DNA of 64,000 nt, taken from Escherichia coli (GTDB lineage Bacteria > Pseudomonadota > Gammaproteobacteria > Enterobacterales > Enterobacteriaceae). This document shows, in pieces, positions 1-50,219 of this stretch. The first letter of the stretch is position 1. The number at the start of each line of letters is the position of its first letter. The translations under genes were made by a program, and so were the position numbers. The stretch lies in NCBI RefSeq assembly GCF_046105845.1, contig NZ_CP151004.1, one strand, 5' to 3'. The notes under the pieces were generated by a model. The model searched no databases and was not told the DNA's origin. It saw nothing but the letters and a program-made list of their open reading frames with translations.

Positions 1-365
1 GAGGGATCCATACCCTGGAGCACCTGTTTGCTGGTTTTATGCGTAACCATCTTAACGGTAATGGCGTAGAGATTATCGATATCTCGCCAATGGGCTGCCG
101 CACCGGTTTTTATATGAGTTTGATTGGTACGCCAGATGAGCAGCGTGTCGCTGATGCCTGGAAAGCGGCAATGGAAGACGTGCTGAAAGTGCAGGATCAG
201 AATCAGATCCCGGAACTGAACGTCTACCAGTGTGGCACTTACCAGATGCACTCGTTGCAGGAAGCACAGGATATTGCGCGTAGCATTCTGGAACGTGACG
301 TGCGCATCAACAGCAACGAAGAACTGGCGCTGCCGAAAGAGAAGTTGCAGGAACTGCACATTTAG
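1..365 (+). CDS. luxS: S-ribosylhomocysteine lyase LuxS, 5'-truncated at window edge
   Basis: Translation from window start (…[42 protein letters not shown]…LQELHI*) matches LuxS C-terminal two-thirds; stop at 363-365. Confidence 0.95.
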
Positions 366-382
366 TCAGTTTAAGCAGAAGA

Positions 383-417
383 GGCCGGGCTGGTGAAATC
401 ACCGCCCGGCTTTTATT
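383..417 (+). terminator. Rho-independent terminator downstream of luxS (GC hairpin ggccgggc…gcccggc followed by TTTTATT)
   Basis: Inverted repeat 383-410 followed by T-tract 411-417; T-tract overlaps stop codon of the convergent minus-strand ORF 416-1528. Confidence 0.6.
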
Positions 418-1528
418 ACCTGTCAGTCACCCAATATTCCACACTATGTGCTTCATCAGGTTGAGGAACTTCCAGCCTTGAGGCCATCCGCATCACGACC
501 GCTTCAGGAACTGCATACTCGCGTCTGGCATTTTGCTGCTTCCATTGCTCCCATGGCACTTCCAGATAAACGATTTTTACTCGTGCGCCGTAAGCCGTAA
601 ACAGACTGATGAGCTGGCTACGCAGCTGGCGGGTAATGTTCGTCGCATTCCAGATGAACGGCTTTTTCTGGCGTAAAAAAACGCGCGCCTCTTCTTTTGC
701 CTGTTGCACAATACGCCCGGTGGCGGTTTTGTCGTCCGGGCTGGCATTGATTCGCCGCCGCATATCATCAAGGCTGATAACGTCCATTCCCAGGCACAGT
801 TCACTGATATAGCGATCTTTGCCCATACCCGGTAAGCCACACAGCAAAATAACCTCAAAAGATTCAGCCTCCCAGGGAACAAAATCAGGAGAACTTTGCT
901 CATGAGTCAGGTAGTGCCAGCGTGCGGAATCAGACACGAACGGGCGCGCTTTTCCCCAGCATTGTTGCTCATGGCAAAACAGCTCGAACAGATCGATGCG
1001 TTCCAGCATTGATTGCTGGTCCGGGCTTTGGCGACCAAGCAGATCGGCACGAGCAAGCAAAGCGAGCAAACGCGTGTCGATGCGCATTGCAGCTGTGAGC
1101 AGCAAACGCTCCGGTTCCGGACGTTCCAGTAACCATAGCGGTAACCCATGCAGACGCACCAGCGCAACAATTTGCTCGCGTAGCACGAACGGCGTTGGGA
1201 TATCGCGCCATAAAATTTGTCGGGCCGTCAGTTCGCCCCGACGAGCATGGCCAGGCGACTGAATACGTCCGTTTTCCTGCACGGTAGTGCTGCGCTTTTC
1301 AACATCATGCAATAACGCCGCCGCCCATAAAACTTCCTGCTGTTGAGCGGGGAGTTGCTGGAATTCTGGCAGAGTAACGAGGGCGTTAAGTACCATTTCG
1401 GTATGCACGCCGACGTCGCCTTCACCATGATGCTCCGGGTCTTGTGGCGTGTGATGCATCTCCTCAACCCAACTGAAACGCTGGCGTAGCGCCGACCAGC
1501 GTTTATCGTCGGTAAGCTGCCAAATCAT
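416..1528 (-). CDS. HD-domain phosphoesterase / P-loop polynucleotide 5'-kinase fusion (HD-Pnk-like RNA/DNA end-healing enzyme), putative
   Basis: 370-aa ORF; N-terminal HD-domain signature (EHHGEG…VHT…LLHDVEK… further His/Asp), C-terminal P-loop GLPGMGKD (aa 231-238) followed by acidic [11 protein letters not shown]; start ATG overlaps upstream ORF stop (ATGA). Confidence 0.75.
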
Positions 1529-2232
1529 GATTGTTCTCCATAGGTGAACTCATGGGCCATCCGCGCCCGTTGCCAGTGGCGTTTCCAGTGTACGGTAGTT
1601 TTGACATGATTTTTGCGTACATACTTGAAGACGTTATGCGAAAAGTCAGCGACGGAAAACGCATCACGATTCCGGCTGACAATGCCTTCCAGCGTACAGG
1701 GTTGCCCGGTTTGTGTATCCCAGGGATCGAACGCGCCGCGCGCATTGGTCAGCGCCAGAAAATCACGTTGCCAGCTTTTTTCATCATTCCCCGGCTGCGG
1801 GCCGGAGATTTCGGGAACGCAGGGGAAATCAAACAGAGCGGCGTAAAACTGCACCTCTTCCCAGCTCAGCCACATATCCTGGCAGCGAACGGCAAACAGA
1901 TAAAAATCCTGCTCCAGGGCGCGATATTCAATCGAATGGACGGCATAAAGATTTTCACCAAACAACTCCAGATCGCCGAGATCGTTTTTCAGCAGTTGCC
2001 AGCGTTGGCGAATTTTATAGGTCCATGCCGACTGCGTAGGCGCGGCATGGGAACGGGCAAACACGCCGTAGCGGTTAAGGCAGTTATTTTCACCGTCGAG
2101 TTTTTCTGTGTGCACCAATTGCGTGATGGCCTGTAAATCCTGCCAGTAATCGGTGTTAATACGGTCATCGCTGGTGGTGCCAGGGGAGAAAGGATAATGC
2201 CAGGTTCTCCCGTATTTTCGTTGGGTATTCAT
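1525..2232 (-). CDS. Minimal ATP-dependent RNA ligase-like nucleotidyltransferase (Rnl family), putative
   Basis: 235-aa ORF; covalent nucleotidyltransferase motifs: motif I EKLDGEN (K44), motif III FGENLY, motif IV LEGIVSR, motif [11 protein letters not shown]; E. coli-like codon usage; weak SD (GGA) upstream of ATG. Confidence 0.75.
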
Positions 2233-2452
2233 AATAATCCATTATTTTGTGTGTAATAAATGTACGCCCGCGAGGGTGCGAGTTATGGGGTTAAAAGAAA
2301 AATGTGAGTATCACCCGCGAAAGCGAGGGCGAAGGAAAAAGAGAATTAACAACCTGAGCGAATGCTCAGAACCGGTTAATGGTGAATGGAAGAGTTTGGG
2401 GCGGCGAAAAGATACACCGAATGAGTGGATAAAACAACCGTTTGCAAAATGA

Positions 2453-2479
2453 GCAAATAAAAAGGGAGCCGCAGCTCCC
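2453..2479 (-). terminator. Rho-independent terminator of emrB
   Basis: On minus strand GGGAGCtgcgGCTCCC hairpin followed by TTTTTATTT immediately after emrB stop (2490-2492). Confidence 0.7.
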
Positions 2480-2489
2480 TTTGACAACC

Positions 2490-4028
2490 TTAGTGCGCAC
2501 CACCTCCGCCGCCACCTGCGCCAAATGGCGGTTTAGCAAACCACACCAGCCCCAGCAGGACGAGGAATATCCCAGCTGACATCCAGAAGATCTCATTGGC
2601 GGAAATAATCAGCCCCTGATTGGTGATCTGCTGGGCAATCCAGCCTGATGCCTGCTGTTGCGTCATCCCAAGCCCTTCCAGTTGACTATACATCGCCTGG
2701 GCATTCGGGTTGAACGGGTTTACCGACTCAGTCAACTGCGCATGGTGCATCGACTCGCGGTTGGTCCACATGGTAGTGGTTATCGACGTGCCGATAGACC
2801 CCGCCAGCGTTCGCGTAAAGTTAGAGAGGCTCGATGCTGCCGCCAGTCGTTCCGGTGGCAAACCAGACAGCGTAATGGTGGTCAGCGGCATAAAGAAGCA
2901 GGCCACCGCAAAACCCTGGATAAACTGCGGCCAGGCCGACGCGCCAAAATCCATACCTGGTTCAAAGGTATAGGCACGCCAGTAGAAGCAGACGGCATAC
3001 ATAATAAAGCTGAAGGTTACCAGCCGCCGCATATCCAGTTTATGCGCGAAGCGGCCGATAATCGGCGACAGGATCACCGGAATAATTCCTACCGGCGCAG
3101 AGGCCAGACCTGCCCACGTTGCCGTGTAACCGTAGACCTCCTGCAACAACTGCGGCAGCAGAACAATCGCGCCGAAGTAGAGCATATACGCGAGGCTGAT
3201 ACACAAGCAGCCGATGGTGAAGTTGCGCGACTTAAACAACGACAGATCGACTATCGGGTTATCGTCGGTCAGCTCCCAGACAATCAGGAAGCAGATAGCC
3301 ACCACTGCCACCACGGTAAGGATGATAATTTCCTGTGATGAGAACCAGTCCAGCTCTTTACCGCGGTCGAGCATAATCTGCAGGCTACCGATACCAATAA
3401 CCAGCAGTGCCAGCCCCACGGCATCAATCCGCCGCCGTTCGGTGCGGGTTTCACGTCCGCGCAGGGTTTGCAGTGTCATCAACACCACCGCCACGCCAAT
3501 CGGTACGTTGATGAAGAATATCCAGCCCCAGTGGTAATTGTCACTGATATACCCGCCGAGGATCGGGCCGCAAATTGGCGCGACAATCACCGTCATCGAC
3601 CACAACGCCAGCGCGATCGAGCGTTTGGCTGGCGGGTAGTTATTCAGCAATAGACTTTGCGAAAGCGGAATTAACGGCCCGGCGACAATCCCCTGAATCA
3701 CGCGGAAGAAGATCAGCATATTCAGGCTGCTGGAGACACCACACGCCCACGACGCAATAGCAAAGGCGATGGTTGACCAGAGGAACAGTTTCACTTCCCC
3801 GACGCGCTTTGCCAGCCAGCCGGTAAGCGGGATCGAGATGGCATTCGCCACCCCGAAAGAAGTGATTACCCACGTTCCCTGGCTGAGCGATGAGCCCAGA
3901 TTCCCGGCGATAGTGGGGATCGCCACGTTAGCAATGGTGGAGTCCAGCACCTGCATGAATGTCGCCAGTGACAGCGCAATCGTCATAATGACCAGTTGCG
4001 CGCCTTCCAGCGGTTTTTGCTGTTGCAT
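2490..4028 (-). CDS. emrB: Multidrug efflux MFS transporter EmrB
   Basis: ORF 2490-4037; protein MQQQKPLEGAQLVIMTIALSLATFMQVLDST… 14-TM MFS; start moved to ATG at 4028 (MQQQK). Confidence 0.95.
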   Translation of the reverse strand: MQQQKPLEGAQLVIMTIALSLATFMQVLDSTIANVAIPTIAGNLGSSLSQGTWVITSFGVANAISIPLTGWLAKRVGEVKLFLWSTIAFAIASWACGVSSSLNMLIFFRVIQGIVAGPLIPLSQSLLLNNYPPAKRSIALALWSMTVIVAPICGPILGGYISDNYHWGWIFFINVPIGVAVVLMTLQTLRGRETRTERRRIDAVGLALLVIGIGSLQIMLDRGKELDWFSSQEIIILTVVAVVAICFLIVWELTDDNPIVDLSLFKSRNFTIGCLCISLAYMLYFGAIVLLPQLLQEVYGYTATWAGLASAPVGIIPVILSPIIGRFAHKLDMRRLVTFSFIMYAVCFYWRAYTFEPGMDFGASAWPQFIQGFAVACFFMPLTTITLSGLPPERLAAASSLSNFTRTLAGSIGTSITTTMWTNRESMHHAQLTESVNPFNPNAQAMYSQLEGLGMTQQQASGWIAQQITNQGLIISANEIFWMSAGIFLVLLGLVWFAKPPFGAGGGGGGAH

Positions 4029-4044
4029 CACACGCACCTCTGGA

Positions 4045-5217
4045 TTAGCCAGCGTTAGCTTTTACGATATCGTCGATCAGTTTATTGACAGGTGCCAGGC
4101 TGATTTCACGCGCGGTGCTTACCGCTACCGGTGTGGAACGTACTTTATTTGCCAGTACCTGACCGTCACGGTTAGTGGTATTGACGCTCACCAGCGTGGA
4201 TAAACCGATACGCAGCGGGTATTGCTCCAGCTGTTTTTGGTCCAGTTCGATACGAACAGGCAGACGCTGAACGACTTTGATCCAGTTACCAGTCGCATTT
4301 TGCGCCGGAAGCAGCGAGAACGCGCTACCTGTGCCCATATCCAGACCAACCACTTTACCGGTGTATTTCACATCATCGCCGTAAATATCGGTGGTGATGG
4401 TGACCGGCTGACCGATGCGCATATTGGCAATCTGCGTCTCTTTAAAGTTGGCATCCACCCACATATTGGTGGCTGGAACGACCGCCATTAGCGGCGTCGT
4501 TGGGCTAATTTGCGCCCCAGGCTGTACCGCGCGGCGGGAGACATAACCGGTCATCGGACTGACAATACGGGTACGCTCCAGCGCCAGCCAGGCGTTACGT
4601 ACTTCGGTGGCAGCCTGTTGCACGGCAGGCTGATCTTCCAGTTTAGTCCCCAGAATCATCGCCTGATTGGCATTGTATTGTTGAATAGCGACGTCCAGTT
4701 GTGCCTGGGCACTGGTAACGGCGTCGCGGGCGTGTTGCAGCTCTTCGCGACCAATCAGGTTGGCATTGCCCAGCGGCACACGGCGGTTGTAGTCGCTTTG
4801 TGCTTTCGCGAGGGCGATTTTTTGCACCTCAATATTCGCCTGCAACTGTTTGCTGTTAATCATCAGCTGGTGGGTTTGGCGAACGCTGGAAGCCAGTGCA
4901 GTTTTGGCTTTTTCAAACGCCTGGCGAGCATCTGTCGGGTCGAGAGTGACCAGAACATCGCCTTCTTTTACAAAATCGGTGTTATCGGCCCAGACTTTCG
5001 TCACGCTGCCAGACACCTGAGACATAATTTGAATCTGATTCCCTGCCACGTATGCGTCATCGGTTTCTTCGAAATGACGCAGTACCAAAAACCAATAAAT
5101 CCCTATCGCTACGGCAATAATTATAAAGAGCAAGGTGAGAAGGAGGAGCAGACGCTTACGTTTGCCGCTCTTCTTTACCGGTTGCTGCGGGGTTTGAGTC
5201 TCCGCATTTGCGCTCAT
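4045..5217 (-). CDS. emrA: Multidrug efflux membrane fusion protein EmrA
   Basis: ORF 4045-5229; MSANAETQTPQQPVKKSGKRKR… ; start at ATG 5217. Confidence 0.95.
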   Translation of the reverse strand: MSANAETQTPQQPVKKSGKRKRLLLLLTLLFIIIAVAIGIYWFLVLRHFEETDDAYVAGNQIQIMSQVSGSVTKVWADNTDFVKEGDVLVTLDPTDARQAFEKAKTALASSVRQTHQLMINSKQLQANIEVQKIALAKAQSDYNRRVPLGNANLIGREELQHARDAVTSAQAQLDVAIQQYNANQAMILGTKLEDQPAVQQAATEVRNAWLALERTRIVSPMTGYVSRRAVQPGAQISPTTPLMAVVPATNMWVDANFKETQIANMRIGQPVTITTDIYGDDVKYTGKVVGLDMGTGSAFSLLPAQNATGNWIKVVQRLPVRIELDQKQLEQYPLRIGLSTLVSVNTTNRDGQVLANKVRSTPVAVSTAREISLAPVNKLIDDIVKANAG

Positions 5218-5343
5218 ATTGTTCTCCACGATCTTCTTAACTCATCGGCTGAGCCGACCTGCTTGCCAAAAAGGCCAGCATGTTGCGATGCTGGCCAGTC
5301 ATTTTTTCTTTTATAAATCTGGATTTTTGAGCGAGATGACGCG

Positions 5344-5874
5344 TTAGCTCATCGCTTCGAGAACCACACCGTCTTGTTCCATCTGGTCGAGACGGGAGAG
5401 CAATTTGCGGGTGATTTGCTCGAGCTGATCTTTTTCTGTTGTGCTGAGCGCGGACCAGAGTTGATGCAGGCAGTTATGCTGCGGTGGTAAAACCTCGCGC
5501 AAAAACTCGTGACCTTTTTCCGTTAATTGCAGATGCAGGCAGCGGCGATCGTTATCGCTTTCACGACGTTCAATCCAACCGCGTTTTTCCAGTTCATCGG
5601 CAATACGCGTCGCGTTGGTACGGGATGATCCAAGAGCACAACTCAATTCAGAAGGCTGAATACTGTGGTTTTCCTGAGACTCCAGCGTAATCAACGCCAT
5701 AAACAACGTCTCGTTAATCCCCTGAGCCTTCAGCATTTTATTGCGGTTCTCCAGCAGCTTGCTTTGCATGTGCATGCAAAGACGGGTCAGAAGGATCTCC
5801 TGATAAGGAAAATCTTCGTGGCGGCTGGCGCGAAATTTTAGCATTTGTTCAATGGGCGTAAACGAACTATCCAT
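5344..5874 (-). CDS. mprA: MarR-family transcriptional repressor MprA/EmrR
   Basis: 176-aa ORF upstream of emrAB, MarR-like wHTH protein. Confidence 0.93.
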
Positions 5875-5964
5875 TTGGGTATGACCTCATTAATTTCAGC
5901 CGATATAGTAACGACAGTGACAAATAAAGTAAATGTATTGTTTTAGAAAAATGATTCTTGTGGG

Positions 5965-6300
5965 TTATATAATCGCCATCACTTTCCAGGCGAGCCCGTA
6001 GGCCAGCGCACTAAGCAGTGTTGGGATGATAATGCTGCGTGTTTTATAGAAACTGGCACCCAGTACCGCGAAGCCGACCAGCGTGGGCACGAAACGGCGT
6101 GTATCGTGCATCACTTCTGGTGCGGTAGAGACAACCAGCAGAGCGCATATCGAGGCGATGCCAATGGTGTCGAGCAATATGCCTATCGCGCCACGTTTGG
6201 TTGGGCGGGTATTACCCACACGCAGGCGCAGCGGCAAATAGCGGAAGCAATAATTCGCCGCGCCAACCAGTAACCCAAGCAGCAGAACCTCATAGCTCAT
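5965..6300 (-). CDS. ygaH: L-valine exporter subunit YgaH (AzlD-like)
   Basis: 111-aa hydrophobic ORF overlapping ygaZ stop. Confidence 0.9.
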
Positions 6301-40299: not shown

Positions 40300-41253
40300 T
40301 TACCATATATCTATGGGTTTTGTTTTCTGCTCATCTAAACAAAATGCACAGATGTAAGCCCCCTTACTTCGGTTGTACTGAACCGTTTCTAAAGCAGAGT
40401 CAAGATGTTTACTATCAAAGTTCCAGCTTTTTTCCATAACAGAAACACATTTTCTGCAATAGAAACTTTCTTTTGAGTTAGTATCTCCTGAATCATTTTT
40501 AGTGTAGCCAAAGAATTTTTTTGCTGATTCCTTTGAACATGCGGAAATGGCTGCAGTGAACTCATAATGAGTTTGAAGCATAGCCCATACAATACCTGAA
40601 AATTCTTCATCCTCGTCTTCATCTAGTCCTATATTAATGCCGCCAGAGGAATGTATTGCTTTATATTTATACCTATGCCATATCCAGTGTGCTGATTCAG
40701 TATTTAGATAGTTGTGAGCACGTACAACTGATGTGAAAATTAGCTCTGGCATTATATCTGTTTTTTTATCAACCGTATGCATAAAACGATTTCTTAGAAT
40801 GCGCATACTATTAAACCAAGTAATAAAGTCATCAGGCAGTGATTTAGAGGCGAAAGTATTATATACTTTAATTAAATCTTGGGCGTCTAATGTGTGGAAG
40901 TCTGAAAATGAAATGTTACCTTCACTATCAGGTTTAGGTGTATTGCGAGTTGCATTCGTGATAAGTAGATAAGGTGATATTTCGACGATAAGTCCTTTTA
41001 GTCTGAATTCAATGGATTGAAGTATCAAATTAAAAGATGTAATCAATTTTGGTCTAGCAAATAACCAATAATGCTCTAAATTTTTAATATCTGATTCTGT
41101 ATAGAATTTAGACGTTTTACAATAACTATTCCAAAGGTTTATATCTCTGTAATCATAAGCTAAATCGGCAATTTTTTCCCAAGCCTCATTTACCATGTGG
41201 TCAGCCATTGTATAAAAATCAGTCTTTGTTGGAATGTCAGTTATCATTATCAA
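40300..41253 (-). CDS. Hypothetical protein with HEPN-like Rx4H motif and C-terminal CxxC…CxxC zinc ribbon (candidate defence/Abi ribonuclease)
   Basis: 317-aa AT-rich ORF; motif RILRNRFMH (R154-x4-H159); C266RKC269 … C302AFC305. Confidence 0.65.
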   Translation of the reverse strand: MIMITDIPTKTDFYTMADHMVNEAWEKIADLAYDYRDINLWNSYCKTSKFYTESDIKNLEHYWLFARPKLITSFNLILQSIEFRLKGLIVEISPYLLITNATRNTPKPDSEGNISFSDFHTLDAQDLIKVYNTFASKSLPDDFITWFNSMRILRNRFMHTVDKKTDIMPELIFTSVVRAHNYLNTESAHWIWHRYKYKAIHSSGGINIGLDEDEDEEFSGIVWAMLQTHYEFTAAISACSKESAKKFFGYTKNDSGDTNSKESFYCRKCVSVMEKSWNFDSKHLDSALETVQYNRSKGAYICAFCLDEQKTKPIDIW

Positions 41254-41484
41254 TCTACCTTTGGGTCTTTATTGTTGTCTATCAAGATATAATATTCAGG
41301 CTGGAGTGGCTAATGTTGATCTACTTATTTTCTCCCGGTAAGTCAGTTTATCGCGATATAAGCCGCATTTGATTTTGGCGACTATGGTCGTGTTAGGTAT
41401 GTATCTGGCGTGTTACTGCGCCAGATTAAATATAAACCAATAATATTAAAGGGTGTTACTCTCTTGACAGATTTAGGGAACAAA

Positions 41485-41679
41485 TCACTCGTCAGCTGAC
41501 TCCCAAGTATCTTTCAGAGTTTCCTGAACAAAAGTTTTAGCTGAATCTTTATCGGCGGTGCGCCTAACAGAAAAACCATCGTTGCTGGTGGCTTTTACGA
41601 TCATCTCCACATCGTCATAATGCTCGCCAATGTATTGGGTTAATTCTTCCTTTAATGCGTCTACAGCGCCGTTTGGCAT
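41485..41679 (-). CDS. Small acidic hypothetical protein (64 aa)
   Basis: ORF-track ORF in AT-rich island, flanked by more than 200 bp non-coding on both sides; no recognisable motif. Confidence 0.45.
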
Positions 41680-42023
41680 TTGGTCATTTTGTCTTTGGCT
41701 ATGGAGATCTCAATACGCATAACATTTCTTTTGTACTGCGTTTGTAGACAGTATTATTCTTATCTGTGTAAATAAACAGTATCAAGACTTCGTTTTAGCT
41801 GCATAAGAAAAAAGAGATGGATACATTCGGAAAGATTTTGATGGTGGTAGGCTAAGTGAATAGCCTAAAGGTGTTTTACCCCAATTATTCCCCGGTATTT
41901 CTCCGCATAAAAAACAATCATAAAAACAACAGCCATAATAGGCTGGTTCTTAAGGGATTTTTGGTCCACGAGAGAATTTGAACCTCCGACCCCCGACACC
42001 CCATAATGGTGTAATTAATCAGG

Positions 42024-42392
42024 TTAAATATTTAGCAGATCCTCTACAATATCATTAAACCCAGATGCCTGTTTAGATACAGAATTGAATAAGTCTCTAA
42101 GTGCTTGTGTTTGCTCAAAAGTTTCCCAAAGTGTTTTATAACTTGGCGTTACAATTGCTAATACTAAGCCTTCCGCCCATGACCATTCATGTTCATCAAA
42201 ATAGTAGCGATATTTTCTGCTGTATATAACAAAATCCTTTTCCTTATATTTAGCATGAAACACAACTTGAATTATATCCTGTGTACCATTAACAAGGTTT
42301 TCAGGCGCATCAATTGCCATCCAATTTATCATTTTTTGGACAGTTAACTTATTTAATGAAACAATTAGCTTTGTGGTTTTATCGTTATGCAT
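42024..42392 (-). CDS. Hypothetical protein (122 aa), second gene of two-gene operon
   Basis: AT-rich ORF starting 2 nt after the stop of ORF 42395-42856. Confidence 0.6.
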   Translation of the reverse strand: MHNDKTTKLIVSLNKLTVQKMINWMAIDAPENLVNGTQDIIQVVFHAKYKEKDFVIYSRKYRYYFDEHEWSWAEGLVLAIVTPSYKTLWETFEQTQALRDLFNSVSKQASGFNDIVEDLLNI

Positions 42393-42394
42393 AA

Positions 42395-42856
42395 TTAGTC
42401 CAGTTGCATATCTTTCACAATTTCGTTAACTCTTGAGTTGAGTATACTCAACTTCTCATAGAGCTTCCAGGCTTGGTCTTGGTCATTGATATTAATGGAG
42501 ATTTCTTTTCTTCGAAAGATTCCTTTGGGTTTGACTTCATCAAAAAATATATCAATCTTTGAGCGTTCCTTGGTTGGAAGCCTGCTGAAAAGGCTTTCAG
42601 TTAGCACTGCACACTCAGTAAACTCCTTACGTATAAATTCTTTCTGAGTAACCCAGTCTCCAATAGCATCATTTATCAATGAGGCTTTTTTTTGAAGATT
42701 GCTATGGATTTCAGGTATTCGAACCTTGTTTCTGAGAGTGGCCTTCAATGAACGCGTCGTAAAAAAAAGTTTTACAGTTACAACAAAACCGACAATACCC
42801 GCTAGGGAGGATATGTCAGTTACCGTCTGTGATAGGGGCCAAGTCAGGATATCCAT
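42395..42856 (-). CDS. Hypothetical membrane-anchored protein (153 aa, one predicted N-terminal TM helix)
   Basis: Hydrophobic stretch SSLAGIVGFVVTVKLFFT near N-terminus; AT-rich; immediately downstream of ssrA terminator. Confidence 0.6.
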   Translation of the reverse strand: MDILTWPLSQTVTDISSLAGIVGFVVTVKLFFTTRSLKATLRNKVRIPEIHSNLQKKASLINDAIGDWVTQKEFIRKEFTECAVLTESLFSRLPTKERSKIDIFFDEVKPKGIFRRKEISININDQDQAWKLYEKLSILNSRVNEIVKDMQLD

Positions 42857-42887
42857 GATGAAAAATCCAATGCTTAAGTTGATACGA

Positions 42888-42940
42888 AAAAACCCGCATA
42901 TGCGGGTTTTTTCGTCGCTCGGGAGCCGCGGCTCCTTTGC
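42888..42940. terminator. Tandem hairpins downstream of ssrA (bidirectional terminator-like)
   Basis: AAAAAACCCGCATATGCGGGTTTTTT palindrome flanked by A/T runs plus GGAGCCGCGGCTCC palindrome followed by T-rich tract. Confidence 0.6.
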
Positions 42941-43037
42941 GTATCCTTTTTTGTCTCCTCACCGTCTGGTCGGTGTCTTGCTGAGACTTCTAACTTCCTG
43001 TTTTTGTTGGTGTTGTCCTTGCACCGTTCAATCATGA

Positions 43038-43400
43038 TTGGTGGAGCTGGCGGGAGTTGAACCCGCGTCCGAAATTCCTACGTCCTCGGTACTACATGCT
43101 TAGTCAGTCTTTACATTCGCTTGCCAGCTGCGGACGGACACGCCACTAACAAACTAGCCTGATTAAGTTTTAACGCTTCAACCCCAGGCAGGGCTTCCAC
43201 GCGATCTCTTTTGGGTTTGACCTCTCTTGATCCCCGTCCTAAGAGCGGAGGCTAGGGAGAGAGGGCTCTAAGCAGGTTATTAAGCTGCTAAAGCGTAGTT
43301 TTCGTCGTTTGCGACTATTTTTTGCGGCTTTTTACGAGGCCAACCGCCCCTCGGCATGCACCTTGGGTTTCGCAAATCCCGTCGAATCCAGAATCAGCCC
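43038..43400 (-). ncRNA. ssrA: tmRNA (SsrA)
   Basis: Reverse complement reads GGGGCTGATTCTGGATTCGACGGGATTTGCGAAACCC…GGTTCAACTCCCGCCAGCTCCACCA, including tag-peptide coding region; boundaries within about 1 nt. Confidence 0.97.
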
Positions 43401-43615
43401 CAATGTGTAACGGTAAGTATACCAGATTCATGAGTGCCATGACCAGCCTCAATGGCGTTATCGTTAAAGATTTAGCACCCATGTAGCCTGATTTTTATTC
43501 GATTAAGCAATGGGATGGCAACATTTTCGTCGGATGTGATAGCCAATAAGATGTGCATTCGCGCCGCCGGAGAGGGAGGCGCGGTGAGGAACTGGTCAAT
43601 AATTGGAGTGCAGGT

Positions 43616-44098
43616 TTAACGGTGGGCGTTTTTCATGATACGCGCTTTATCCACCTGCCATTCGCGCTCTTTGATATCTGAACGTTTATCGTGCTGTTTC
43701 TTACCTTTGGCGACGCCGATTTTCACTTTGCACCAGGCATTTTTCCAGTACAGGGAGAGCGCCACTACGGTATAGCCTTCTCGATTGACGCGACCGTACA
43801 ATGAGTCCAGTTCGCGCTGGTTGAGAAGTAACTTGCGGGTACGGGTAGGATCGCACACCACATGCGTGGAGGCCACGGCCATTGGCGTGATGTTAGCGCC
43901 AAACAGAAATGCCTCTCCGTCACGCAGAAGGACGTAGCTGTCGCTGATATTGGCTTTTCCTGCGCGCAGGGATTTAACCTCCCAGCCTTGCAGGGCAAGT
44001 CCCGCTTCGAACTCTTCTTCGATAAAGTATTCGTGACGGGCGCGCTTGTTAAGCGCGATGGTCGCTGAACCAGGTTTATGTGCTTTTTTCTTCGTCAT
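43616..44098 (-). CDS. smpB: SsrA-binding protein SmpB
   Basis: 160-aa [51 protein letters not shown]…. Confidence 0.97.
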
Positions 44099-44229
44099 AA
44101 GCGTCGTGAATCATCGGTAATCTGAAATCGAAAACACCCCATATCAATCCTGCGGGGGACAAGGCTCTATCTTAGCATGAACCCGATGTTACCCAGCGCC
44201 GGGATAGCGTTTTTTTTACAGCAGGATAA

Positions 44230-44706
44230 ATGATATTATTTGTTGGATTTTTGTTGATGGAAATTGTTATGCCTCAGATTAGCCGGACCGCACTGGTACC
44301 CTACAGCGCGGAGCAAATGTATCAGTTAGTGAATGACGTTCAGTCTTATCCTCAGTTTTTGCCGGGTTGTACCGGAAGTCGGATTCTGGAGTCCACTCCT
44401 GGGCAGATGACTGCGGCGGTAGATGTCTCTAAGGCTGGGATCAGCAAAACGTTTACTACCCGCAACCAGTTGACCAGTAACCAAAGTATTCTTATGCATC
44501 TGGTGGATGGGCCGTTCAAGAAATTGATCGGTGGATGGAAGTTTACGCCGCTGAGCCAGGAGGCGTGTCGTATCGAGTTTCATCTCGACTTTGAGTTTAC
44601 CAATAAGTTGATTGAACTCGCCTTTGGTCGCGTGTTTAAAGAGCTGGCGGCTAATATGGTCCAGGCTTTTACGGTTCGTGCGAAAGAGGTTTACAGTGCC
44701 AGGTAA
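44230..44706 (+). CDS. ratA: SRPBCC-family protein RatA/PasT
   Basis: 158-aa ORF; alternative start at 44269 (MPQISRT) possible. Confidence 0.9.
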
Positions 44707-44986
44707 AATTGCCGTTGAGGTGGCTTATGCGCTACCTGAGAAGCAGTACCTGCAGCGTGTGACGCTGCAGGAGGGTGCGACGGTTGAAGAAGCTATTCGC
44801 GCCAGTGGCTTGCTGGAATTGCGTACCGATATCGATTTAACTAAAAACAAAGTCGGCATTTATAGCCGTCCGGCAAAACTGAGCGATAGTGTGCATGATG
44901 GCGATCGGGTGGAGATTTATCGCCCTCTCATTGCCGATCCGAAAGAGCTGCGCAGGCAACGAGCAGAAAAATCAGCGAATAAATAA
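44696..44986 (+). CDS. ratB: RnfH-family protein RatB (YfjF)
   Basis: GTG start at 44696 overlapping ratA stop; [22 protein letters not shown]…. Confidence 0.85.
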
Positions 44987-44995
44987 CAGACAGAA

Positions 44996-45024
44996 AAAAG
45001 GTGCTCATTGAGCACCTTTTTTAA
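44996..45024. terminator. Bidirectional rho-independent terminator between ratB and bamE
   Basis: AAAAAAGGTGCTCAttgaGCACCTTTTTT palindrome with flanking A/T runs. Confidence 0.7.
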
Positions 45025-45047
45025 CGTCTTTGAGAGCAACTTTATTA

Positions 45048-45389
45048 TTAGTTACCACTCAGCGCAGGTTTGTTATCAATGTTGGTCAACACACCGCTAC
45101 TGTTAAAGGTCAGCGTCAGCGTTTGCTGCGTTACACCTTCATGACCTGGTTGCTGGCGGAAGACATAGAACCAGGTATTCGTACCAAATGGATCGGACAT
45201 CAACGGTGTACCCAATGCGTACGCAACTTGTTGTTGCGTCATGCCAACGCGTATTTTGGATACGTCGTTAGCGGTCAGATAATTCCCCTGGTTGATATCA
45301 GGACGGTAAACCACTCGCTCCAGAGTGGAACAGCCTGCGGTCAACATCAATAGTACTGCTGCTGCAGCAGTCAGCGTTTTACAGCGCAT
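45048..45389 (-). CDS. bamE: Outer membrane assembly lipoprotein BamE (SmpA)
   Basis: 113-aa ORF with lipobox LTAGC. Confidence 0.95.
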
Positions 45390-45537
45390 AGTGATTTGAT
45401 TCCTTTTCGGGCCCGAGCAGTACGTGGCTCATCTGTAATATGCCGATGATAATAGACCTTTCATCACTTTAAAACCTTTTGCTTTCCGGTCTTACGGCGT
45501 TTTGCTGTTTACTCTGACCGTGAAGCAGGAAAAAAGT

Positions 45538-47199
45538 TTACGCCGCAAGTAGTTCTTTCGCATTCGCCAGTGTGTTACGTGTGACTTCACTGCCACCAAG
45601 CAGGCGCGCCAGCTCTTGTAACCGCGCTTTTTTATCCAGGGATTGCATATGCGTTTCTGTCATCGCACCATCGGTTTCTTTGCTGACAAAATAGTGTTGA
45701 TGACCACATCCCGCGACTTGTGGCAGGTGGGTAACACACATCACCTGAGTTGATTCGCCGAGTTGACGCAGCAGTTTGCCAACAACTGCCGCTGTTGGGC
45801 CGCTAATCCCTACATCCACTTCATCAAAAATCAGTGCCGGGGTTTCCATTTTACGCGCCGTGATGACCTGAATTGCCAGTGCGATGCGGGACAATTCACC
45901 ACCGGATGCGACTTTGGCAATAGGCTGCATTGGCTGACCTGGGTTGGTGGTTACCCGAAATTCAATACGATCAGCGCCGTCAGCGCCCAGGTGATGCTCG
46001 TCAAATTTAACATCAATCGTAAACTGCCCATGCGGCATAGAGAGTGCATGCATACTGTCGGTGATCAGCTGTGCAAGTTCTTCTGCATAGTGCTGGCGTT
46101 GCTGGTGTAATGCGTGCGCGGTTTCCAGTGCCTGCTGATGATGTTTCGTTACCGCCAGCGTGAGCGTTTCTTGTGAGTCGGCCTGATCGTCCAGTTGCTG
46201 CTGTTCTTCCAGTAGCGACTGGTAATACTGTGGCAATGCCTCAGGGCTGACGTGATGTTTACGTGCCAGCGAAATCTGTTTTGAGATGCGCTGTTCAAGT
46301 TCAAACAGTCGGTTGGGATCGAGATCCAGACGATCGCAGTAGTGGCGCAGTTCATCGCTGGCTTCAGCAATCTGGATGGTAGCTTCTTCCAGCATATCAA
46401 GTACGCCGGACAGTTTGCTGTCCATGCCAATCAATTCGCTTACCAGTTGTTTAGCCGTGTAAAGCCGACTTTGCAGGTTTGCGTCTTCACCATCGGCCAT
46501 TAATGCCAATGCATTCTGGCTGGTGGTCAGTAATTGGCCGCTATTCGCCAGACGTTTGTACTCTTCGTCGATTTGCTCAAACTCTCCGGGCTGCGGATTA
46601 AATTCGTTAAGTTCTTTTAATTGGTATTGCAGCAGTTCCGCACGGGCAGCACGTTCCTGACTTAACTGTTGATGATGCGCGAGGTCACGGCAGCTTTGAT
46701 GCCACAACTGATAACGTGCGGTCATTTCCTGGAGCAGAGAGGTTTCATTGGCATAGCCATCAAGAAGGAATTTTTGGTGCTCGGGTTTGGTAAGTAACTG
46801 ATGAGCATGCTGACCATGGATCTGAATCAGCAACTGACCTAGTTCGCGCAGTTGTGACAGAGGAACAGCTGTACCGTTGATAAAACCTCGTGAGCGACCA
46901 TCGCTGCTGATTACGCGACGAAGCAGACATTCACGGCCATCTTCCAGTTGGTTTTCTTCCAGCCAGCGCAGAGCCGCTGGCGTATCTTTCAGTGAAAAAC
47001 GGGCGCACAGGTCGGCACGAGCAGCGCCGGTACGCACCATGTCGGCTTCAGCGCGACCACCGAGACAAAGGCCGAGGGCATCTATTGCAATAGATTTACC
47101 CGCGCCGGTCTCGCCAGTTATTACGGTCATGCCGCTATGAAAATCAATCTCAAGCTCACGAACGATAGCAAAGTTGCTGATGGTCAGTTGTGCCAACAT
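45538..47199 (-). CDS. recN: DNA repair protein RecN
   Basis: 553-aa SMC-like ORF with Walker A GETGAGKS. Confidence 0.96.
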
Positions 47200-47284
47200 A
47201 GTTGTTTTCCTGTATGAAAAACCATTACTGTTATTGTGTACAGTATAAACTGGTTTTATATACAGTAAAGAGGCTGGCGTAAAA

Positions 47285-48163
47285 TTAGAATAATTTTTTT
47301 GACCAGCCGAGCTTGGTGCTTAATGTATTGAAATAACTGTAATCTTTCGGATGAATCAGATTCAGATGGTAATCACAGCGACGAATCAGGACATCTTCAC
47401 CTTCCTGAATCGGCAGTGCTATCTGGCTGTCGCAACTGATTTCCAGGTCGTTACGGCGATGCGAAAAACGCAGACGGATCGTGCTGCTGCTGTTTATGAC
47501 CAGTGGTCGTGCTGACAACGTATGCGGGAACATGGGCACCAGGGTAATCGCATCCAGAGAGGGGGTCAGAATAGGACCGCCCGCAGAGAGGGAATAGGCG
47601 GTGGAGCCTGTTGGCGTCGAAATAATTAGCCCATCAGATCGCTGAGAAAACGCAAAGATCTCGTCGATATACACTTCGAACTCTATCATATGCGCCACTT
47701 TGCCTGGATGAAGTACCACTTCATTTATCGCGGTGCTGATGCGCTTTTGGCAATCTTGCTGACAGACTTGCGCTTCCAGCAAAAAACGTTTCTCGCTGAT
47801 GTAGTGACCTTCCAGCACATCGGCTAATTGTTGCTGGGCGTTATCGGGGTCAAGGTCAGTCAGGAAACCCAGGTTGCCACGGTTGATTCCAATAACTTTA
47901 ATATCGTAACGGGCGAGCGTGCGCGCCGCGCCCAGCATATTACCGTCGCCACCAACGACTACCGCGAGATCAGCCAGTTGCCCAATCTCCGCGAGCGTGC
48001 CAGTTTTCACATTCTTCAGTTGCAGTTCGTGAGCGATTTGTTGCTCAACGATGACCTCGTAACCTTTTGTGCACAGCCAGCGGTAGAGCATTTCATGTGT
48101 TGTCAGTGCAGTAGGGTGCCGTGGGTGTCCCACAATGCCAATACACTTGAAATGATTATTCAT
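47285..48163 (-). CDS. nadK: NAD kinase NadK
   Basis: ORF 47285-48340; start trimmed to ATG 48163 ([14 protein letters not shown]…), GGDG motif present. Confidence 0.95.
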
Positions 48164-48260
48164 TTTTCCGAGGTCCTTGTTGCGAAGATTGATGACAATG
48201 TGAGTGCTTCCCTTGAAACCCTGAAACTGATCCCCATAATAAGCGAAGTTAGCGAGATGA

Positions 48261-48878
<618 letters not shown>

Positions 48879-48899
48879 TTTCTGCTTTCGTAATAAATC

Positions 48900-48933
48900 A
48901 CGGCCCAGCATGCGAATGCCGGGCCGTTTTCGT
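48900..48933 (+). terminator. Rho-independent terminator after grpE
   Basis: cggcccagcatgcgaatgccgggccg hairpin followed by TTTTCGTT. Confidence 0.7.
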
Positions 48934-50219
48934 TACTCCGCCACACTCTCGCGCAGCGGTTTCACAGGAAAAACTTTTACCTGTTTAATCATATTGTCCT
49001 GTACGTCGAGAATGTCGATGTCGTACTCGCCAATACGTACACGAGTGCCCGCGACCGGGATCTCTTCCAGTGCCTCAAGAATGACGCCATTAACCGTGCG
49101 GGCATCATCTTCCGGTAGATGCCAGTTAAAGGCTTTGTTGATTTCCCGCACGTTGGCAGTGCCATCAATAATCACCGAACCGTCGTTTTGCGGAGTGACT
49201 TCTTCGGCAAGTGTTGGCGACATCGAGGTAGTGAAATCGCCGACAATCTCTTCCAGAATATCTTCAACCGTCACCAGCCCCTGAATGTCTCCGTATTCGT
49301 TGACGACCAGGCCGACTTTCTTTTTGTTGCGCTGAAACTTTACCAGTTGCGTGCTGAGTGGCGTGCCTTCGGGCACAAAATAGATCTCGTCCGCGGCGCG
49401 TAGCATGGTTTCTTTGGTGAACTCTTTTTTCTCCGACATCAACCGCCAGGCTTCACGTACTCGCAGCATACTGATGGCGTCGTCCAACGAATCACGGTAG
49501 AGCACGATGCGCCCGTGAGGTGAGTGGGAGAGTTGGCGCAGAATCGATTTCCAGTCATCGTTGATATCAATACCGATAATTTCACTGCGCGGCACCATGA
49601 TGTCATCAACGGTCATCTTTTCCAGATCGAGCACAGACAGCAGCATATCCTGATTGCGACGGGAAATTTGTGAGCGTGATTCGTGCACGATAGTGCGCAA
49701 CTCTTCTTTGCTCAAAGAGCCGCTAACCACGATATCGGTTTTGATACCCATCATGCGCATCAGCATACGGGTGATAGCATTCAGCAACCAGACCAGCGGC
49801 ATCATCAAAATTTGCAGCGGAGCCAGCAGAAAACTACTCGGATAAGCGACTTTTTCCGGGTACAGCGCGGCAATGGTTTTCGGCAATACCTCAGCAAAAA
49901 CCAGTACGACAAAAGTCAGCACACCAGTCGCAATTGCCACGCCCGCATCGCCGTACAAACGCATCCCAACAATAGTGCCGAGCGCGGAGGCAAGAATATT
50001 GACCAGGTTATTGCCGATTAACACCAGGCTAATCAGGCGGTCTGGCTTACGCAGCAATTTTTCGACGCGTTTGGCCGAGCGATTACCCTGTTTCGCCATA
50101 TGTCGCAGACGATAGCGGTTGAGGGTCATCATTCCGGTTTCGGACCCGGAAAAATAGGCTGAAATGACCACCATGATGATCAGAATAATGATCAACGTAG
50201 TAGTAGAAATGTGTTCCAG
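48933..50219 (-). CDS. yfjD: CorC/HlyC-family (CNNM, CBS-pair) inner-membrane protein YfjD
   Basis: ORF-track frame 48933-50195 (420 aa); the frame stays open upstream (LEHISTTT…) with no ATG, so the 5' end 50219 is a possible non-canonical start and is uncertain. Confidence 0.85.
   Translation of the reverse strand: MEHISTTTLIIILIIMVVISAYFSGSETGMMTLNRYRLRHMAKQGNRSAKRVEKLLRKPDRLISLVLIGNNLVNILASALGTIVGMRLYGDAGVAIATGVLTFVVLVFAEVLPKTIAALYPEKVAYPSSFLLAPLQILMMPLVWLLNAITRMLMRMMGIKTDIVVSGSLSKEELRTIVHESRSQISRRNQDMLLSVLDLEKMTVDDIMVPRSEIIGIDINDDWKSILRQLSHSPHGRIVLYRDSLDDAISMLRVREAWRLMSEKKEFTKETMLRAADEIYFVPEGTPLSTQLVKFQRNKKKVGLVVNEYGDIQGLVTVEDILEEIVGDFTTSMSPTLAEEVTPQNDGSVIIDGTANVREINKAFNWHLPEDDARTVNGVILEALEEIPVAGTRVRIGEYDIDILDVQDNMIKQVKVFPVKPLRESVAE

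Follow-up and report, generated by a model that had tools for sequence, protein, structure and literature searches.

The interval between luxS and emrB in this Escherichia coli chromosome holds an intact two-gene operon, and we consider it probable that the operon is a heal-and-seal system for broken nucleic-acid ends, most likely those of RNA, and an old enterobacterial resident that is often lost. The window, that is the whole stretch of DNA analyzed, comprises 64,000 nt. Judging from the sequences, a large and clinically important share of E. coli would have a second, ATP-dependent heal-and-seal pathway beside the universal RtcB systems. As K-12 lacks the operon, the pathway would have been invisible to classical E. 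coli genetics, and we found no report on this locus in E. coli in the literature. The E. coli version, with its natural carrier and non-carrier strains, would make the substrate question of the enzyme family testable. The locus also illustrates well how an accessory polymorphism can resemble an "island" and yet be an ancient resident under loss.

Layout of the locus and the two predicted enzymes

The luxS and emrB stops delimit positions 366–2489 of the window, which is the entire intergenic stretch. The features of the locus are as follows.

1–365, plus strand: 3′ part of luxS, the left flank; the ORF ends at 365, named from the luxS annotation in matching E. coli records
384–417: terminator probably shared by luxS and the operon, action in both directions being suggested by its position
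416–1528, minus strand: HD-Pnk, with a predicted N-terminal HD phosphoesterase and C-terminal P-loop 5′-OH polynucleotide kinase
1525–2232, minus strand: stand-alone ATP-dependent ligase-type nucleotidyltransferase, 235 aa
2453–2482, minus strand: intrinsic terminator of emrB, hairpin 2482–2461 and T-tract 2460–2453
2490–4037, minus strand: emrB, the right flank, co-oriented with the operon and lying upstream of it; annotated as emrB in matching records

The interval is filled by two minus-strand ORFs of 370 aa (416–1528) and 235 aa (1525–2232). The ligase gene lies upstream of the HD-Pnk gene in the same orientation, and its stop overlaps the HD-Pnk start by 4 nt (ATGA, 1525–1528). This ligase-then-HD-Pnk arrangement is seen in all enterobacterial loci and also, with one further gene in between, in Deinococcus. 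On the luxS side, a hairpin read from the sequence at 384–410 (GCCGGGC-N13-GCCCGGC) is followed on the plus strand by TTTTATT (411–417), and this T-tract overlaps the TAA stop of HD-Pnk (416–418). The terminator is kept in E. albertii; Citrobacter and Kosakonia have other hairpins instead. On the other side, the emrB stop codon (2490–2492, minus strand) is followed by the emrB terminator, a 9-bp stem and then TTTTTATTT, which is kept in the filled alleles of Escherichia, Citrobacter, Klebsiella, Kosakonia and ENNIH3. The ligase ORF is preceded by about 220–257 nt of non-coding DNA. An earlier note on this DNA had described a gap of about 2.1 kb, a T-tract running over the stop of the kinase ORF, some 220 bp between the ligase ORF and the emrB terminator, and a kinase and a ligase gene. 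All of this is borne out by the ORF ends, the sequence itself, and the profile matches and motifs described below.

From its sequence, the 370-aa protein is a member of the HD-Pnk family and a candidate end-healing enzyme. Pfam returned AAA_33 at 1.3e-32; the HD match on the single sequence was weak (E 0.013), and PF01966 is precomputed for many HD-Pnk homologs. Matches to NCBIfam models were HDIG at 6e-4 and, over its kinase part, bacter_Pnkp at 4.6e-8. The HD-domain residues are H33/H34, H42, H74-D75, H94, H127 and D162, and the metal-binding residues are invariant or nearly so in an alignment of 14 homologs from two phyla, as expected of an HD domain. A kinase domain is indicated by AAA_33 and by matches of the family profile to structures (CthPnk kinase at 1.6e-8, T4 Pnk at 4e-3 to 6.5e-3), with the caveat that its Walker A motif, LPGMGKD (232–238), reads GKD rather than GK[ST], as it does throughout the HD-Pnk clade aligned here. 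D254, R257 and R303, the candidate general base and arginines, are invariant in the alignment. The protein aligns with the characterized D. radiodurans DR_B0098 over residues 5–361 (29% identity, E 2e-32).

The 235-aa protein matches Pfam RNA_ligase (PF09414) at 4.4e-28 and shares 36% identity with DR_B0100 (E 2e-27). It contains motif I (TEKLDGEN, K44), E93 in FGENLY, motif IV (EGIVSRN, E182-G183) and K203/K207. Motifs I, III, IV and V are invariant or at least 90% conserved among 28 sequences, and the motif set of covalent nucleotidyltransferases is thus present. Assignments from Pfam, NCBIfam and PHROG all back the identity of the two genes. A sequence search found no related PDB sequences for the ligase; hemocyanin and capsid matches were rejected as spurious multi-repeat matches. 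The AF2 model (pLDDT 81.7) shows a disordered segment (1–23) and then a nucleotidyltransferase fold only. Its best structural matches are the nucleotidyltransferase domains of RNA ligases, with NgrRnl first (E 1e-6). Within this domain the Rnl5 RNA ligases (Naegleria NgrRnl, Deinococcus DraRnl) show 17–21% identity and a TM of about 0.5. Rnl5 enzymes have an N-terminal OB-like domain beside the nucleotidyltransferase domain. This extra domain is missing from the window ligase, which has the nucleotidyltransferase domain and no other, falls about 100 residues short of the matching NgrRnl chains (235 versus 335–340) and has a TM of ∼0.36 when normalized to the target.

The proposed pathway and its substrate

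We propose that HD-Pnk would heal 2′,3′-cyclic-phosphate or 3′-phosphate and 5′-OH ends, as may be left by ribonuclease toxins or chemical breakage, to 3′-OH and 5′-phosphate ends, the HD phosphoesterase and the P-loop kinase performing the conversion. Sealing of the healed ends would fall to the small ATP-dependent ligase in its K44-adenylylated form. Transcription would run towards luxS, probably from a weak promoter that belongs to the operon and follows directly on the emrB terminator, and through a conserved structured leader. Our analysis establishes the gene content, the motifs, the homology, the synteny, the divergence and the distribution. The enzymatic activities are assigned by analogy to HD-Pnk homologs in the literature, where 5′-OH kinase and 2′,3′-phosphoesterase activities are on record for the Runella and Deinococcus proteins (PMC6097658; PMC1997131); that the substrate is RNA, that the ends are sealed, where the promoter lies and what part the leader plays are what we infer. 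To our knowledge, sealing has been shown for no ligase of the DR_B0100-like subfamily, and for the ligase/HD-Pnk family as a whole no structure has been solved and no physiological substrate established. In Runella and Deinococcus, the ligases were reported to self-adenylylate, yet to fail on standard 3′-OH/5′-phosphate substrates (PMC6097658; PMC1997131).

Members of the same family have been described before, in Runella and in Deinococcus. The HD-Pnk of Runella slithyformis (Munir and Shuman, 2017, as described in PMC6097658) joins an HD phosphoesterase at its N terminus to a 5′-OH kinase at its C terminus, and directly upstream lies the ORF of a putative ATP-dependent ligase, the 3′ end of which runs over the start of HD-Pnk. 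The gene layout in the window agrees with this published description, but adjacent Tpt1 or methyltransferase-HIT genes are missing from the window. Other Bacteroidota homologs (Adhaeribacter, Chryseolinea, Chitinophagaceae) are 55–58% identical to the window HD-Pnk and 62–66% identical to the ligase. The Runella HD-Pnk is active on DNA and RNA ends alike.

In D. radiodurans the ligB operon, on megaplasmid MP1, consists of the DR_B0100 ligase, the PARG-like DR_B0099 and the HD-Pnk DR_B0098. Kinase activity and ligase adenylylation have been reported for this pair (PMC1997131), and its end-healing role is summarized in PMC6300522. Both E. coli proteins align with their Deinococcus counterparts over the full length and the ligases have one motif in common; the HD-then-kinase order, the ligase gene in first position and the overlapping ORFs are also shared. 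In contrast, the E. coli operon has no PARG/TIGR02452 gene in between and is chromosomal instead of megaplasmid-borne, the Walker A motif of its HD-Pnk is GKD and not GKS, and its ligase is 25 residues longer.

The Deinococcus pair is also the main reason to consider that the same two enzymes have DNA as their physiological substrate, a reading that we regard as unlikely. DR_B0100 and DR_B0098 are homologs of the window proteins, the Deinococcus operon is radiation-induced, and its HD-Pnk reportedly helps the cells to survive ionizing radiation and mitomycin C, both DNA-damaging agents (cited in PMC6300522). In vitro, the Deinococcus kinase works on DNA oligonucleotides (PMC1997131). However, identity to the Deinococcus proteins is only 29–36%, and the function may therefore differ. 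The ligase model is nearer to RNA ligases (1e-6 to 1e-4) than to DNA ligases (1e-2 or worse), and in other taxa the pair has neighbors from RNA repair (rtcB, prfH, rlaP) and not from DNA repair, a setting that also distinguishes these relatives from the Deinococcus operon. In Serratia and in Adhaeribacter (Bacteroidota) the pair directly follows rtcB-prfH, and a metagenomic contig has it flanked by rtcB-rlaP-rlaP on one side and a further rtcB on the other. We thus favor RNA as the substrate.

RtcB joins a 3′-phosphate or cyclic phosphate straight to a 5′-OH, without end healing. The RtcB2-PrfH module, which serves ribosome rescue and the repair of 16S rRNA and adjoins the pair in Serratia and Adhaeribacter, repairs ribosomes cut by colicin E3 (PMC9304027); the theme of ribotoxin damage repair would be common to both, but the chemistry is unrelated and the module is absent from the window locus. 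With bacterial Pnkp-Hen1 and T4 Pnkp/Rnl the pair would share its logic, in which a kinase and a phosphatase heal the ends before an ATP-dependent ligase seals them. CthPnk and T4 Pnk are relatives of the HD-Pnk kinase domain, whereas the phosphatase is an HD domain, not a metallophosphoesterase or DxDxT enzyme. TIGR04075 scored 31.7 bits against a cut-off of 750, with the kinase segment alone matching, and no Hen1-like ORF is present within 1–6000. Neither protein matches the PADLOC defense models at E ≤ 0.01.

Distribution and age of the operon at the luxS-emrB junction

In K-12, luxS and emrB stand tail to tail with a 63-bp spacer and the two genes are absent from the site, just as the earlier note had stated. 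The presence/absence polymorphism that it expected across E. coli is real. The segment was found in 998 of the 5,426 complete E. coli genomes (about 18%), always as a single chromosomal copy, and about 82% are without it. Carriers include ST131, a large clone, NC101, an avian pathogenic strain and E2348/69. Beyond E. coli, the emrB|luxS slot holds the pair in at least seven genera (Escherichia, Salmonella, Citrobacter, Klebsiella, Kosakonia, Enterobacter sp. and Superficieibacter). Filled and empty sites were taken from among the matches listed in a luxS-anchored genome scan, and Salmonella, E. fergusonii and other Escherichia species stand outside that sample.

At synonymous sites, the operon has diverged at least as much as the core genes on either side. 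Relative to E. albertii, dS was 0.24–0.42 for the operon and 0.22–0.43 for the flanks; relative to Citrobacter and Kosakonia it was saturated for operon and flanks alike. Within E. coli, dS ranged from 0.05 to 0.28 and alleles differ by up to 6%. The dN/dS of the pair was 0.03–0.17. The composition is native (GC 52–54%, GC3 55–58%), with an RSCU correlation with the flanking genes of r = 0.83, in agreement with the E. coli-like codon usage noted before.

These data bear on whether the segment is a recently acquired cargo island in an ancestrally empty E. coli junction. The earlier note had called it a "cargo-only insertion", a description that could not be sustained given the same slot in seven genera and dS at or above that of the flanks. 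It was right, though, that the segment lacks mobility genes and a repeat boundary. There are no integrase, transposase or relaxase ORFs in the ORF list of the segment, and no flanking direct or inverted repeats or att sites were found at its boundaries. The pair was never seen on an E. coli plasmid, none of the enterobacterial plasmids in PLSDB carries a copy, and there are no enterobacterial phage copies. The copies in E. coli and E. albertii are most closely related to one another, with dS equal to that of the flanks, and the divergence among E. coli alleles likewise speaks against a recent arrival. A recent island would account for the patchy distribution in E. coli and would sit well with a slot that, without mobility genes, carries different cargo in different genera, and with the wide occurrence of the K-12-type empty-site terminator in other genera. 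Even so, it is contradicted by the evidence at hand and we consider it extremely improbable.

The K-12 spacer is not a deletion scar of the filled allele, to which it has no similarity. Its terminator, GCCAGTTC-loop-GAACTGGC, is common to the empty sites of several other genera and to the Salmonella filled allele. It follows that the filled and the empty state are both old. The E. coli polymorphism has probably arisen through allele replacement by recombination as well as by deletion. The earlier suggestion of an old acquisition or an ancestral module lost in K-12 thus stands as far as long residence is concerned, given the seven genera and the dS values, but loss by simple deletion is too simple. 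Long residence may reflect ancestral presence, or an ancient acquisition that then spread via flanking homology.

Loss and inactivation are evident at several points. In the type strain of E. albertii, 1,772 bp have been cleanly removed from the interior of the segment, and independent pseudogenes or deletions were found in VCSW7, O145:H28 RM13516, THO-006 and Ecol_542. As several lineages carry pseudogenes, selection in E. coli may be weak. Taken further, the E. coli operon could be a functionless relic drifting to loss that happens to be intact in the window. A stop, frameshift or deletion in 4 of about 8 carrier alleles inspected, the large majority of genomes without the operon and the weakness of the predicted promoter would fit such a relic. 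On the other hand, intact alleles from deeply diverged E. coli lineages have a dN/dS of 0.03–0.17, the leader upstream of the ligase gene is 93–99% conserved within E. coli and still recognizable across genera, and the operon is kept in ST131 and other sampled carriers. We therefore regard a relic as very unlikely. The data support long chromosomal residence of the operon in the emrB|luxS slot of Enterobacteriaceae, with largely vertical inheritance under purifying selection and with repeated loss, replacement or inactivation.

Promoter and leader upstream of the ligase gene

Between the emrB terminator and the ligase gene the following candidate elements were found.

2409–2437, minus strand: sigma-70-like promoter candidate, TTGTTT (2437–2432), 17 nt, TATCTT (2414–2409)
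2233–2402, minus strand: predicted 5′ leader of ∼170 nt, from a putative transcription start
2336–2370, minus strand: leader hairpin P1 with U-rich tail, UCUGAGC-AUUC-GCUCAGG (2370–2353), tail 2352–2336
2311–2332, minus strand: predicted leader hairpin P2, UCGCCC...GGGUGA
2230–2246, minus strand: conserved block that takes in the ribosome-binding site and the start codon, AAUAAUGGAUUAU(U/C)AUG

All 11 filled loci, which come from seven genera, have the pattern TTGnnn-17 nt-TATnnT in the same place. The candidate has 7 of 12 consensus positions in the window, which is below the scan threshold, and 9 of 12 in Superficieibacter. Because a generic promoter scan of the minus strand upstream of the ligase gave no match, the promoter is proposed from its positional conservation.

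Across four genera, the non-coding identity of the leader is 78%, with synonymous sites there near saturation. Its single-sequence fold has a z of –2.76. Rfam 15 gave no covariance-model match at E ≤ 1 for 2233–2489, and the sole match on the whole 6.5 kb was a chance snoRNA outside the leader. Hairpin P1 is terminator-like and was flagged by the terminator scan. It is paired in 98.7% of cells and shows compensatory changes in 3 of 7 pairs; none of 500 shuffles reached the observed values. The motif is restricted to loci with the operon at the emrB site. P1 is a candidate attenuator. For P2, a hairpin is predicted 16–18 nt after P1 in all 11 loci, the stem sequences differing in divergent loci; the analysis of covariation was confined to P1, the alignment around P2 being poor. 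The position-conserved promoter-like element, the conserved leader and the covarying hairpin lend computational support to the earlier designation of 2233–2452 as a promoter or regulatory segment.

Other readings of the leader were rejected. Taken as a LexA box (CTG-N10-CAG, judged by eye), P1 has a GC-rich core, and the Superficieibacter copy alters both arms while pairing is kept. Coding potential (a plus-strand 67-aa ORF at 2249–2452 and a minus-strand 58-aa ORF) was unsupported, as the intergenus indels appear frame-breaking on visual inspection.

A more speculative proposal, to which we give little credence, is that the leader, with the promoter-proximal P1, the second hairpin P2 and the block at the ribosome-binding site as its parts, is an undescribed cis-regulatory RNA, an attenuator coupling the operon to RNA damage or translation stress, and that the ligase acts on a non-standard end. 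The latter would explain the failure of its relatives on 3′-OH/5′-phosphate substrates. Pairing of the conserved UUCCAUUC (2391–2384), as an anti-SD, with the SD UAAUGGAU did no better than shuffles (z about –1) and was without true covariation; we keep it as a hypothesis. The block at the ribosome-binding site is nearly invariant in 10 of the 11 loci.

The luxS–emrB interval and its two proteins

Positions 366-2489 span exactly the gap from the luxS stop (365) to the emrB stop (2490-2492, minus strand). The description of this segment in an earlier note proved accurate in every detail with regard to coordinates, terminators and the two ORFs:

1525-2232, minus strand: ligase ORF, 235 aa
416-1528, minus strand: HD-Pnk ORF, 370 aa
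384-410 (hairpin), then TTTTATT at 411-417: luxS terminator, overlapping the stop codon of the 370-aa ORF
2482-2453: emrB terminator

The ORFs share a 4-base overlap (ATGA) and thus form a single operon, which runs from the emrB side toward luxS. As the note had claimed, the interval lacks mobility genes and a repeat boundary: its ORF list contains no integrase or transposase, and a search for repeats at its boundaries found none. Its composition is native (GC 52-54%, GC3 55-58%), and the E. coli-like codon usage noticed earlier is reflected in an RSCU correlation of r = 0.83 with the flanks. Elsewhere in the window, 30000-50000 is matched at 80% coverage or more in only one complete E. coli genome, with phage tail and IS3 genes among the matching annotations near recN and ypjA; the window therefore holds other accessory material.

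The 235-aa protein matches RNA_ligase (PF09414, 4.4e-28) in Pfam. Its covalent nucleotidyltransferase motif set, including motif I (TEKLDGEN, with K44) and motif IV (EGIVSRN), is complete and invariant across 28 homologues. The best structural matches of its AlphaFold model (pLDDT 81.7) are nucleotidyltransferase domains of RNA ligases, with Naegleria Rnl5 first (E 1e-6), followed in order by fungal Trl1-LIG, archaeal Rnl3 and T4 Rnl2; DNA ligases match much more poorly. The nucleotidyltransferase domain resembles that of Rnl5, but the extra domain is absent and identity to the structural matches is at most 21%. We therefore rejected membership of Rnl5 and regard the protein as a stand-alone ligase module.

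The C-terminal part of the 370-aa protein is a P-loop kinase (AAA_33, 1.3e-32), and its family profile matches the structures of Clostridium thermocellum Pnk and T4 Pnk. The N-terminal HD domain scores weakly in Pfam (E 0.013); its H...HD...H...D residues do not vary between homologues of two phyla. The Walker A motif LPGMGKD (residues 232-238, window 815-835), with Asp in the usual Ser/Thr position, is the same in all 14 homologues compared from Enterobacterales and Bacteroidota; in Deinococcus HD-Pnk the corresponding sequence is GSGKS.

A ligase/HD-Pnk pair is described for Runella slithyformis (PMC6097658); compared by description, the domain order and the overlap of the ligase ORF with the kinase-gene start are the same. 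In Deinococcus radiodurans, the MP1 megaplasmid carries an operon of DR_B0100 (ligase), DR_B0099 (PARG-like) and DR_B0098 (HD-Pnk). Over their full lengths, our ligase is 36% identical to DR_B0100 (E 2e-27) and our HD-Pnk 29% identical to DR_B0098 (E 2e-32). DR_B0098 is an active 5′-kinase and DR_B0100 self-adenylylates (PMC1997131); the operon is induced by radiation and HD-Pnk aids survival (PMC6300522). Judged by sequence, the element is an E. coli member of this already described family of end-healing and sealing operons. A literature search for an E. coli version found no paper.

Distribution, age and loss of the operon

Comparison of the junction across genomes revealed the presence/absence polymorphism that the note had anticipated. 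Of 5,426 complete E. coli genomes, 998 (18%) carry the segment and 1 more has a partial copy. Sampled carriers include ST131, NC101, APEC IMT5155, E2348/69 and O145:H28, and the site is empty in K-12, O157:H7 and O103 genomes. In K-12, 63 bp separate luxS and emrB and the pair is missing, in line with the adjacency given in the note. That the operon is absent from the laboratory strain and common in extraintestinal pathogenic lineages is one reason for interest in it.

The same emrB|luxS slot holds the pair in E. albertii, Citrobacter amalonaticus, a Kosakonia sp., Klebsiella spallanzanii, Enterobacter sp. BIGb0383, Superficieibacter electus, the GTDB E. coli representative, a Salmonella enterica lineage, 'Enterobacteriaceae bacterium ENNIH3' and further metagenomic contigs. 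Synonymous sites of the pair have diverged in step with those of the core genes on either side. In the comparison with E. albertii, the ligase has a dS of 0.42 and HD-Pnk one of 0.24, and the values for mprA, emrA, emrB and luxS are 0.22-0.43; with Citrobacter and Kosakonia, pair and flanks alike are near saturation. The corresponding dN/dS is 0.05-0.13. No plasmid copy was seen among the carriers in the 5,426 genomes, and PLSDB held no enterobacterial plasmid with the operon. Two Proteus mirabilis 'plasmid' matches (NZ_OL790811.1 and NZ_OL790812.1) were rejected as plasmid carriage, being ~4 Mb and evidently chromosomes. The only full-length HD-Pnk homologue in phage is from an uncultured phage. 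The shared slot in several genera, flank-like dS and native composition leave the note's headline of an insertion unsupported and favor its cautious alternative, an ancient or ancestral module; the segment is not a recent insertion.

Intact E. coli alleles differ by at most 6% (dS 0.05-0.28, dN/dS 0.03-0.17). The ligase and HD-Pnk genes give unlike divergence values for one and the same strain pair, which suggests old, recombined alleles. Several losses were found. The E. albertii type strain NBRC 107761 (L011 3573-4107) lacks 1,772 bp, cleanly deleted by comparison with a filled E. albertii genome (L003 5081-6852), to which the flanks of the deletion are 99-100% identical. Leader and ligase gene are gone, as are three quarters of HD-Pnk, of which an 88-codon remnant is left. 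Stop codons interrupt the ligase gene in VCSW7 and HD-Pnk in O145:H28 RM13516, the ligase gene is frameshifted in THO-006, and in Ecol_542 a deletion runs from the ligase gene through emrB. Repeats and insertion sequences also occur at the site: a REP/BIME-like insert between HD-Pnk and luxS in E. albertii (L003 7113-7308), ISEc13 adjoining HD-Pnk in E2348/69 (L099 1-518) and IS200C within the empty site of strain E23.

The idea that the K-12 empty site is a scar left by the filled E. coli allele was rejected, since the 63 bp do not resemble any part of that allele. The site is made up of a terminator, AAAAAGCCAGTTC-loop-GAACTGGCTTTTT, also found in the empty sites of Citrobacter werkmanii, C. 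youngae, an Enterobacter sp. and Pluralibacter, in variant form in Kluyvera, and, in the filled allele of Salmonella, between emrB and the operon (compared loci L001 1899-1918 and L093 5664-5683; gaps of L015, L016, L018, L032, L037 and L042). Hence the empty state, like the filled one, is ancient. In other genera the slot carries quite different cargo, for example a LeuA-like 2-isopropylmalate synthase with an AraC-type regulator, a porin-like protein, or a lipoprotein together with a large partner of 487-932 aa, and no mobility genes were seen in these slots (gaps inspected in loci L012, L022, L026, L027, L030, L031, L033, L036, L040, L041, L043, L047 and L055). Because of this other cargo and the terminator common to empty and filled sites, the slot is a long-standing variable position between convergent, highly conserved genes. 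In E. coli the polymorphism probably stems from deletion plus allele replacement via the conserved flanks.

RNA or DNA as substrate

In Serratia rtcB-prfH immediately precedes the pair (L008/L009 3520-7116), and the same arrangement occurs independently in Adhaeribacter (Bacteroidota; L090 2009-6110). The Serratia neighbors exceed the NCBIfam cut-offs for release_rtcB and PrfH; in Adhaeribacter PrfH does so, and RtcB is a family-level match under the specific cut-offs. On one metagenomic contig (L091 601-7854) the pair sits between rtcB-rlaP-rlaP and a second rtcB. RtcB2-PrfH repairs colicin E3-cut ribosomes (PMC9304027) and RlaP is an RNA-ligase-associated nucleotidyltransferase (PMC12776372). 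These neighborhoods are possibly composite RNA-repair islands. A role in DNA repair, as discussed for Deinococcus, seems less likely given the rtcB, prfH and rlaP neighbors and a modeled ligase fold closer to RNA ligases; on the same grounds we favor RNA as the probable substrate. No member of the ligase subfamily is reported to have sealed a strand (PMC6097658; PMC1997131), and the question of the family's substrate adds to the interest of the operon.

A conserved predicted leader upstream of the ligase gene

Across four genera with near-saturated synonymous sites, the emrB-to-ligase spacer retains 78% identity. Just past the emrB terminator, TTGnnn and TATnnT with a 17-nt spacer occupy the same place in all 11 distinct filled loci. 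The predicted elements are:

2437-2432 (TTGnnn) and 2414-2409 (TATnnT), minus strand: candidate promoter, from positional conservation
2370-2353, minus strand: hairpin P1 and the U-rich tract after it, terminator-like

The E. coli candidate promoter is weak (7/12 match), and a generic promoter scan missed it at 2437-2409. It would imply a leader of ~170 nt, although the actual start could be elsewhere. Among only 11 related sequences, the P1 pairs hold in 98.7% of cells, with compensatory changes in 3 of the 7 pairs, values reached by none of 500 shuffles. All 11 loci also have a further predicted hairpin, P2, at a constant offset. The ribosome-binding-site block AAUAAUGGAUUAU is nearly invariant; its pairing with the upstream UUCCAUUC had no statistical support, and the leader had no match in Rfam. 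The P1 motif was found only in loci with the operon at the emrB site. We consider the leader a reasonable candidate attenuator. It may represent a new regulatory RNA, which is a further reason for interest in the operon.
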